Assembly (NCBI GenBank): GCA_000165345.1
Contig: CM000433.1
Span: 32,001-96,000 of the forward strand
DNA length: 64,000 nt
Reading direction: 5' to 3'
A program made the translations under genes and the position numbers. The notes beneath the pieces are model-generated. The model was not told where the DNA came from and did no database searches. It saw only the letters and a list, made by a program, of their open reading frames with translations. Shown here piece after piece: positions 61,556 through 61,726 of the stretch (positions are counted from its first letter, which is position 1; every line of letters begins with the position of its first letter).

Positions 61556-61726
61556 TTATTTTTTTTTGCAAATACATTCAGGTGAACATTTACATTCATC
61601 CTTACAGCATGAGCAACAACAACAGCAGCATTTTCCATTAACATTTTTTTGAGATTCACTTTCGGGGCAAGTTTTAATGCAACACTTGCAATTTGCAGTA
61701 CATTTACATTGTTCACAATTAGTCAT
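61556..61726 (-). CDS. Metallothionein-like cysteine-rich mini-protein (56 aa, 19 Cys). Missed by the ORF track.
   Basis: Minus-strand ATG at 61726. Manual translation gives MTNCEQCKCTANCKCCIKTCPESESQKNVNGKCCCCCCSCCKDECKCSPECICKKK*, with TAA at 61556-61558. CKC, CC, CxC and a CCCCCC run are typical of metallothioneins. The listed ORF 61504..61716 is the wrong frame of the same locus. Confidence 0.5.
   Translation of the reverse strand: MTNCEQCKCTANCKCCIKTCPESESQKNVNGKCCCCCCSCCKDECKCSPECICKKK

Follow-up and report, generated by a model that had tools for sequence, protein, structure and literature searches.

The window analysed here—64,000 nucleotides (nt) of contig CM000433.1, GenBank assembly GCA_000165345.1—carries on its minus strand, at positions 61556–61726, a short cysteine-rich open reading frame (ORF) that lies between a divergent TMA7 gene and a mucin-like Thr-rich gene. 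It translates to MTNCEQCKCTANCKCCIKTCPESESQKNVNGKCCCCCCSCCKDECKCSPECICKKK followed by a stop, that is, 56 amino acids (aa) with 19 cysteines (Cys), ten Lys, and no F, W, Y, or H, exactly the length and Cys count given in an earlier inspection of the letters alone (hereafter, the initial annotation). The source was correctly guessed there as a Cryptosporidium-like organism: the window is Cryptosporidium parvum chromosome 5. The neighbouring CDC50/LEM3 protein (398 aa; 62611–63807, minus strand) is identical to Iowa II EAK88177.1 and IOWA-ATCC CPATCC_002028, and positions 57610–64000 are 99.8% identical to CP044418.1 (IOWA-ATCC), compared with ~95.4% identity of the matching stretches to C. tyzzeri and C. 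hominis and ~88–90% to C. meleagridis. G+C content is 23.4% over the 64-kb window, in which 18 N's are scattered; with ~30% G+C genome-wide in C. parvum, the window would be unusually AT-rich.

Cysteines are far denser in this ORF than base composition predicts. With a Cys-codon probability of 0.024 derived from the window, at least 19 Cys in 56 codons would arise with P ~3e-17, and the best 30-residue stretch of the ORF holds 12 Cys, against six in the best one elsewhere among all stop-free stretches of the window. Translation starts in the context AAAATG, and an in-frame TAA 18 nt upstream of the ATG argues for a single-exon gene starting at 61726. An N-terminal extension or upstream exon was considered and is ruled out by that stop codon, the ATG and the first residues moreover being conserved in seven species. 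No paralogue of the gene is present within the window. The sole other stop-free segment with a modest Cys cluster (13615–13794, minus strand; CIENRKCANCNEIGPNYVCINFGTFVCSVC) looks like a CxxC...CxxC zinc-finger (ArfGAP-type) motif of an ordinary larger gene.

Using the CDC50 orthologues as anchors, we retrieved the syntenic region from ten additional species or isolates; in seven other species, a homologous ORF sits at the corresponding site, flanked by TMA7 and the mucin-like gene and with unchanged orientation (Table 1). In C. ryanae and C. xiaoi the intergenic slot contains no Cys-rich ORF, and tblastn over the 11-kb loci gave nothing better than E ~0.01. In C. felis, an annotated 138-aa multi-exon model named ‘TMA7 (weak)’ covers the position of the Cys-rich ORF on the opposite strand (6564–7342 of locus sequence L018), a gene model that is probably wrong. 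The gene had been described as unannotated, which is accurate for the C. parvum and C. hominis GenBank records examined, whose called genes leave it out, and inaccurate elsewhere: a search with the 56-aa sequence matched two deposited proteins, ELE39_002781 and cubi_01727, and a 73-aa gene is already called at the orthologous locus of C. meleagridis UKMEL1. The exact 56-aa product was absent from the gene-position index on look-up because automatic callers had taken a 70-aa frame starting with GTG instead.

Selection on the gene, as estimated from its substitutions, is clearly and strongly purifying. Between C. hominis and C. meleagridis, synonymous divergence (dS) is 0.80 and non-synonymous divergence (dN) 0.075, a ratio of 0.09; for the whole gene, dN/dS amounts to 0.04–0.11 in pairs with measurable dS and to 0.25 in the near-identical pair of C. 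hominis and C. tyzzeri. The core, i.e., the part corresponding in length to the C. parvum protein, shows a ratio of non-synonymous to synonymous differences (pN/pS) of 0.06–0.15 across six species, and 14 Cys columns are invariant in all eight. Synteny in eight species and a dN/dS of about 0.1 show that the ORF is a genuine conserved protein-coding gene of intestinal Cryptosporidium and not noise, as the initial annotation had supposed on compositional grounds. As far as can be seen from these comparisons, the family is confined to the intestinal Cryptosporidium clade.

In C. parvum, this gene is cut short by a single nucleotide. Five species encode proteins of 70–73 aa, in which the stretch ending in ECICKK is followed by N/D/S-K/Q-C, a Cys-free spacer of 10–12 residues, and KCCKC. 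Where C. tyzzeri and C. hominis carry eight A's (A8) at the corresponding junction, C. parvum has nine (A9), and the extra A puts a TAA in frame directly after three Lys codons. Beyond it, in the +1 frame, a relic of the ancestral C-terminal tail persists, with four Cys that are invariant among the six tail-bearing species. According to the initial annotation, the ORF track shows only a wrong-frame ORF at this place. The program-made ORF list holds the 56-aa ORF as well as the 70-aa GTG ORF in the other frame (61504–61716), and the final 18 codons of the latter are the ancestral C-terminus. Removing one A yields a 73-aa C. parvum protein that differs from its C. hominis counterpart at two residues, and the peptide NKCTSEKPTETESK would be the mark of this rescued frame.

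The A9 run is present in seven of seven C. parvum sequences (the window, CP044418.1, CP029784.1, CM109965.1, and three independently assembled Logan read runs, a count that leaves aside 20 further similar Logan contigs); two of the three further GenBank assemblies are chromosome-level, and the set includes the long-read IOWA-ATCC assembly and covers two CDC50 protein variants, and the 56-aa coding sequence (CDS) is identical across all seven. The run is A8 in C. tyzzeri and in three of three C. hominis assemblies, and the reading frame is likewise kept in C. meleagridis, chipmunk genotype I, and C. ubiquitum. Identical A9 runs across independent C. parvum assemblies and A8 across the three C. 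hominis assemblies rule out a sequencing error in the A run, a homopolymer miscount being very unlikely with both lengths so reproducible. Judged from these alignments, the A insertion is a fixed, C. parvum-specific change, and the 56-aa ORF is best described as a C. parvum-specific truncation of a 70–73-aa protein by an A8-to-A9 insertion.

The damage is limited. The truncated product retains 19 of the 23 Cys, including all 14 that are universally invariant, and lacks only the 17-residue tail. C. canis ends with CICKKVS, at most two residues from where C. parvum stops, and C. felis with a different short tail, CICRKSCCGNK; no long tail is hidden in another frame of either species within 330 nt. 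These natural short ends argue that the tail is evolutionarily dispensable. Where a tail exists, constraint on it is real (pN/pS 0.11–0.44) and weaker than that on the core.

It is conceivable, and in our estimate unlikely, that the C. parvum copy is a young pseudogene, a non-functional remnant of a family that functions in the sister species. A frame-breaking 1-nt insertion that is fixed in seven of seven C. parvum assemblies and missing from the closest relatives is what such a remnant would display, and the lost tail is under purifying selection in the species that keep it. The stop, however, comes only where the conserved core ends and spares every invariant Cys, close to the point where C. 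canis terminates of its own accord and in a region where C. felis, too, has no long tail. The C. parvum core differs from that of C. tyzzeri, and equally from that of C. hominis, by one non-synonymous versus three synonymous changes, and the promoter-proximal 130 nt are intact (96–97% identical to C. tyzzeri and C. hominis). The C. parvum tail shows no decay specific to this species, with ~1 substitution expected since the split from C. tyzzeri and hence no discriminating power. The retained core and the natural short ends of C. canis and C. felis suggest that the truncated 56-aa protein is probably still functional, a short isoform and not the product of a dead gene. One extra A in a coding A8 run shifts the frame into an immediate TAA and would leave the 56-aa form as the main product in C. 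parvum.

What this protein might do is suggested by its architecture. The full-length form has 70–73 aa, 21–23 Cys, and a mass of about 8 kDa. An N-terminal block of seven Cys (C4, C7, C9, C13, C15, C16, C20; CxxCxCxxxCxCCxxxC) is followed by a hydrophilic, Cys-free linker of 12 residues and by a central block of 10–12 Cys (CC..CC-x-CC-xxx-CxC-xxx-CxC) that ends in CKDECKCSPECIC; a third part, found in some species only, consists of a short spacer and a CCxC tail. The 6.2-kDa C. parvum product spans the N-terminal block, the linker, and the central block. Its poly-Cys run of six, which the initial annotation had singled out, turned out not to be conserved and so does not define the family: KCCCCCCSCCK occurs in the C. 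parvum, C. hominis, and C. meleagridis proteins, whereas the run reads CCCSCC in C. tyzzeri, CCSCCS in chipmunk genotype I, C--LCS in C. canis, and C--CCT in C. felis.

The composition is that of a metallothionein (MT). Masses of 6.1–8.1 kDa in eight of eight species lie below the customary ~10 kDa, and a Cys share of 29–34% falls within the usual range of about 15–35%, with four to seven CxC, three to eight CC, and one to four CxxC motifs per protein. Seven of the eight species have no F, W, or Y at all and C. tyzzeri has one Phe, His numbers zero to three, and Lys is mostly adjacent to Cys. MTs usually have 24–75 aa and 18–23 Cys, and hypothetical proteins that are small, rich in Cys, and equipped with CCC clusters have been named good MT candidates (PMC1808422); with lengths of 54–73 aa and 16–23 Cys, we place the family within this usual range. 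In every one of these respects the predicted proteins satisfy the compositional, operational MT definition, in line with the metallothionein-like make-up first noted at this locus. The grand average of hydropathy (GRAVY) is −0.46 to −0.73, and the N-terminus (MTNCEQCKC) contains no hydrophobic segment and thus no signal peptide as judged by a simple hydropathy check, not by SignalP.

While gene status and frameshift can be read directly from the alignments, metal binding is something that we infer. As the most likely mechanism we favour, with moderate confidence, the binding of metal in metal-thiolate clusters, through which Zn(II) and/or Cu(I) would be buffered or stored in the cytosol. The single-exon gene would give rise to a small cytosolic protein rich in Cys and Lys, whose thiolates may wrap Zn(II) and/or Cu(I), so that the parasite holds the metal in its cytosol. 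The metal-free chain would not fold by itself, since in the absence of a hydrophobic core folding is hardly possible except around metal ions or via disulfides. Cryptosporidium retains a CTR-type copper transporter even though several species are without cytochrome c oxidase, and a review of 2021 noted this transporter without an obvious copper-dependent pathway and described no metal store of the parasite (PMC7612242).

Several points weigh against this assignment. MT status based on composition is a weak criterion, and cysteine-string or S-acylated proteins as well as disulfide cross-linked structural proteins share the same composition; the C. parvum frameshift could equally mark the onset of gene decay. 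The Pfam search, proposed by the initial annotation as a check for metallothionein profiles, returned no family and no MT match for the 56-aa ORF, its repaired version, or any of the eight orthologues, with E values of up to 10 admitted, and a PDB profile search at the same threshold returned no chain. The AlphaFold model is of low confidence (predicted local distance difference test 66.6, predicted template modelling score 0.40) and has no Foldseek match in PDB; such a model would fit a metal-dependent fold and proves nothing. A metazoan-type metal-response element (TGCRCNC) is absent from the 520 nt upstream in all species, an element that is not expected in an apicomplexan.

More broadly, the two annotated Cryptosporidium proteins were the sole matches of single-sequence and profile word-index searches across 5.8 billion clusters; a full HMMER profile search, run on 1.84 billion representatives, recovered family members only, and a scan of JGI metagenomes gave 135 pattern matches with none confirmed. 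By these searches, the proteins form an orphan family with no detectable relatives beyond Cryptosporidium and stand outside every sequence-defined MT family. The only Rfam signals for a known RNA family over the locus were sub-threshold miRNA-precursor matches, which stem from a palindrome 360 nt upstream.

A cytosolic Cys-rich protein need not bind metal, and its poly-Cys run could instead be multiply palmitoylated, so that the small basic protein would be anchored to a membrane (pellicle or vesicles) in the manner of a cysteine string. Poly-Cys runs are classic multi-palmitoylation sites, e.g., the cysteine string of DnaJC5; KCCCCCCSCCK in three of the species would provide one, and lack of a signal peptide would leave it exposed to cytosolic acyl-transferases. 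Variation of the run among orthologues weakens S-acylation, which we regard as a live if unlikely rival, as does the spacing of the invariant Cys, mostly CxC and CxxxC along the entire chain, which is a better fit to metal chelation; nor is there a J domain or any other Pfam domain.

The A9 run raises the question of whether C. parvum regains the 73-aa protein from some messages, be it through slippage of the polymerase during transcription (A9 to A8) or through a +1 shift of the ribosome. The tail frame in C. parvum is intact, free of stops, and complete with its four Cys and its own TGA, and frameshifts in poly(A) runs of endosymbionts are sometimes rescued by polymerase slippage. This intactness carries no weight for slippage rescue, though, because ~1 substitution is expected in the 54 nt since C. 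parvum and C. tyzzeri split, a figure based on their total divergence of ~4.6%. The shift required is moreover +1, or the loss of one A, whereas −1 is commoner, and nine A's fall short of the 11–12 usual for efficient ribosomal effects. Long A runs are known for polymerase slippage as well as ribosome sliding and frameshifting, but in another apicomplexan, P. falciparum, poly(A) is translated with neither stalls nor frameshifts (PMC7295572). We thus regard recoding as very unlikely, and give still slightly less credit to a locus that yields two isoforms by this route, the core with 19 Cys and a form of 23 Cys that includes the CCxC tail. If true, programmed slippage would be described for the first time in Cryptosporidium, and the gene concerned would encode the first metallothionein-type metal store in an apicomplexan that is open to experiment.

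There is similarly little to recommend a disulfide-rich peptide, be it a structural or cross-linking component (e.g., of the oocyst wall or the gamete) or a redox buffer. Oocyst wall proteins of Cryptosporidium are Cys-rich, and the Cys content here is very high; yet a protein with negative GRAVY throughout and without signal peptide or hydrophobic segment is expected in the reducing cytosol, it contains no COWP-type or other domain, and adjacent Cys-Cys and CxC spacings suit regular disulfide knots poorly. A granulin- or defensin-like family, the alternative that the initial annotation had named, likewise finds neither a Pfam match nor a hydrophobic N-terminus in its favour. Least credible of all is a small Fe-S protein of the 4Fe-4S ferredoxin type: the automatic UniRef name of cubi_01727 (‘4Fe-4S ferredoxin-type do...’) points that way and a CxxCxxCxxxC spacing can be found in most orthologues, but the ferredoxin signature CxxCxxCxxxC[PEG] occurs in none of the eight proteins, the loose spacing starts at non-homologous positions (residue 35, 34, or 10) and is missing in two species, C. 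felis lacks C20 of the CP dipeptide, no Fer4 Pfam match appears at E up to 10 for the eight proteins, and hydrophobic core residues for a ferredoxin fold are lacking, so that motif, position, and Fer4 tests effectively refute the label at the sequence level.

Sequence around the gene is also constrained. Between C. parvum and C. meleagridis, identity is 95% in the 130 nt directly upstream of the ATG, 85% in the CDS, and 63% in the 150 nt downstream, which suggests that the upstream block is a constrained 5′ untranslated region (UTR) or core promoter; the conservation could stem from a 5′ UTR element, a promoter, or an overlapping transcript. Two AATAAA hexamers follow the tail-frame stop (Table 1). 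Farther upstream, in the intergenic region shared with TMA7, a tandem E2F-like element is clearly conserved in seven of eight species, its second half being degenerate in C. ubiquitum; C. felis has GGCGC and GGCGCC sites at other places in the aligned region. The element may serve the Cys-rich gene, TMA7, or both. A near-perfect palindrome of ~55–60 nt (62085–62144; AAATATTTAAATTTCAAATTAGGCGC/TGGCGCCTAATTTGAAATTTAAATATTT) is centred on the E2F-like sites; its long, AT-rich arms are apparently C. parvum-specific, and it gives the sub-threshold Rfam miRNA-precursor matches on both strands.

TMA7 itself (translation machinery-associated protein 7, PF09072; 52 aa, 62233–62391, plus strand), the divergent upstream neighbour of the Cys-rich gene, is another small gene overlooked by annotation: the Logan assemblies and C. 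ryanae have it among their called genes, whereas CP044418.1, CP029784.1, and the C. hominis records do not. On the other side, the mucin-like gene with its poly-Thr/poly-Ser run (59222–61136, plus strand) appears as two overlapping ORFs in different frames (59222–60199 and 60105–61136), which meet at scattered N's (60126–60168). Elsewhere it is one gene of 626–645 aa (633 aa in CP029784.1), and the split in the window is therefore an artefact of assembly quality.

Table 1 Features of the locus, junctions of the A run, and orthologues of the Cys-rich gene.
Feature	Position	Strand	Details
C. parvum CDS as it stands	61556..61726	-	ATG at 61726, 56 codons, TAA stop 61558-61556
A9 homopolymer (T9 on + strand)	61559..61567	-	one A more than A8 of C. 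tyzzeri/C. hominis
Relic of ancestral C-terminal tail	61504..61560	-	NKCTSEKPTETESKCCKC + TGA; +1 frame; end of 70-aa ORF 61504-61716
Upstream conserved block	61727..61856	-	130 nt directly before ATG; putative 5′ UTR or core promoter
Two overlapping AATAAA hexamers	61478..61488	-	16-26 nt past tail-frame TGA; candidate polyadenylation signal
Tandem GGCGCT/GGCGCC (E2F-like) element	62109..62120	.	divergent intergenic region shared with TMA7, ~385-395 nt upstream of Cys-rich ATG
C. parvum junction			TGC-A9-TAAATGC; A9; TGCAAAAAAAAATAAATGC
C. tyzzeri junction			TGT-A8-TAAATGT; A8; TGTAAAAAAAATAAATGT
C. hominis junction			TGT-A8-CAAATGT; A8; TGTAAAAAAAACAAATGT
C. tyzzeri orthologue			73 aa
C. hominis orthologue			73 aa; 3 assemblies
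C. meleagridis orthologue			73 aa; 2 assemblies
Cryptosporidium sp. chipmunk genotype I orthologue			72 aa; ELE39_002781, deposited as ‘uncharacterized protein’ (NCBI name)
C. ubiquitum orthologue			70 aa; cubi_01727, deposited as ‘uncharacterized protein’ (NCBI name)
C. canis orthologue	7269-7433 (locus sequence L017)		54 aa; unannotated
C. felis orthologue	7154-7330 (locus sequence L018)		58 aa; unannotated

The initial annotation knew of no metallothionein in Cryptosporidium-like apicomplexans, and among the matches listed, full-text articles on Cryptosporidium and metallothionein(-like) proteins concern host or environmental contexts only; a search with the gene identifiers (cubi_01727 and others) returned no papers. 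Among apicomplexans, a 2020 census of MT annotations in GenBank lists Babesia, Plasmodium, and Theileria and does not list Cryptosporidium (PMC7216689). What is new is an orphan MT-like family with a species-specific truncation; what was already known are two orthologues deposited as uncharacterized proteins. Metal handling in Cryptosporidium is almost unstudied, and an MT-like gene that is conserved and under strong constraint would offer a concrete candidate for buffering Zn/Cu in the cytosol. Since neither of the two main human pathogens has it annotated, transcriptomic, proteomic, and genetic-screen analyses that build on their gene sets probably do not see it. The A8/A9 difference, clean and fixed in coding sequence, separates C. 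parvum from C. hominis and C. tyzzeri and is easily genotyped. More generally, small single-exon genes—TMA7 being another—and homopolymer frameshifts escape annotation in eukaryotic parasites, and the call of a ‘wrong-frame’ ORF can conceal the ancestral end of a gene.

Compared with known systems, the truncation resembles the coding poly(A) frameshifts of insect endosymbionts and eukaryotic polyA tracks in that a one-nt change in an A run leaves the downstream frame intact; here, by contrast, the run has only nine A's, the stop is immediate, and a near-complete protein is left. With the cysteine string of DnaJC5/CSP, the C. parvum protein shares six consecutive Cys followed by CC, flanking Lys, and a predicted cytosolic location, whereas it has no J domain, an unconserved run, and Cys spread along the chain.

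The family 7 MTs of Tetrahymena, likewise of alveolate origin, are built as modular repeats of elementary motifs: C2X6 plus CKCXXCXCCK in subfamily 7a, and CKCXXCKC repeats in 7b (PMC1808422). CC/CCC clusters recall the Cd/Zn-type 7a, and CKC triplets with most Lys adjacent to Cys the Cu-type 7b (CKCXXCKC); the N-terminal CKCTANCKCCIK comes near the 7a consensus CKCXXCKCCK with one extra spacer residue, the near-miss CKCxxxCKCC occurring once. The Cryptosporidium protein thereby mixes features that are diagnostic of separate subfamilies. It differs further in its length (54–73 aa versus up to 162 aa) and in having no hierarchical modular repeats, and with the modular repeat absent it does not qualify for membership in ciliate family 7. 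There is no homology detectable by hidden Markov models, profile searches returning Cryptosporidium proteins only, and chipmunk genotype I and C. canis have no CCC clusters, while C. tyzzeri shows them in reduced form, so that the resemblance to ciliate MTs that the initial annotation had seen in these clusters has no sequence match behind it. Set beside the MTs at large—an operational, polyphyletic superfamily—the Cryptosporidium family has no detectable sequence similarity to a curated MT family or a solved MT structure; what it has in common with them is size, Cys share, CxC, CC, and CxxC motifs, the scarcity of aromatic residues and His, the lack of a signal peptide, and an arrangement in Cys blocks parted by Cys-free linkers.

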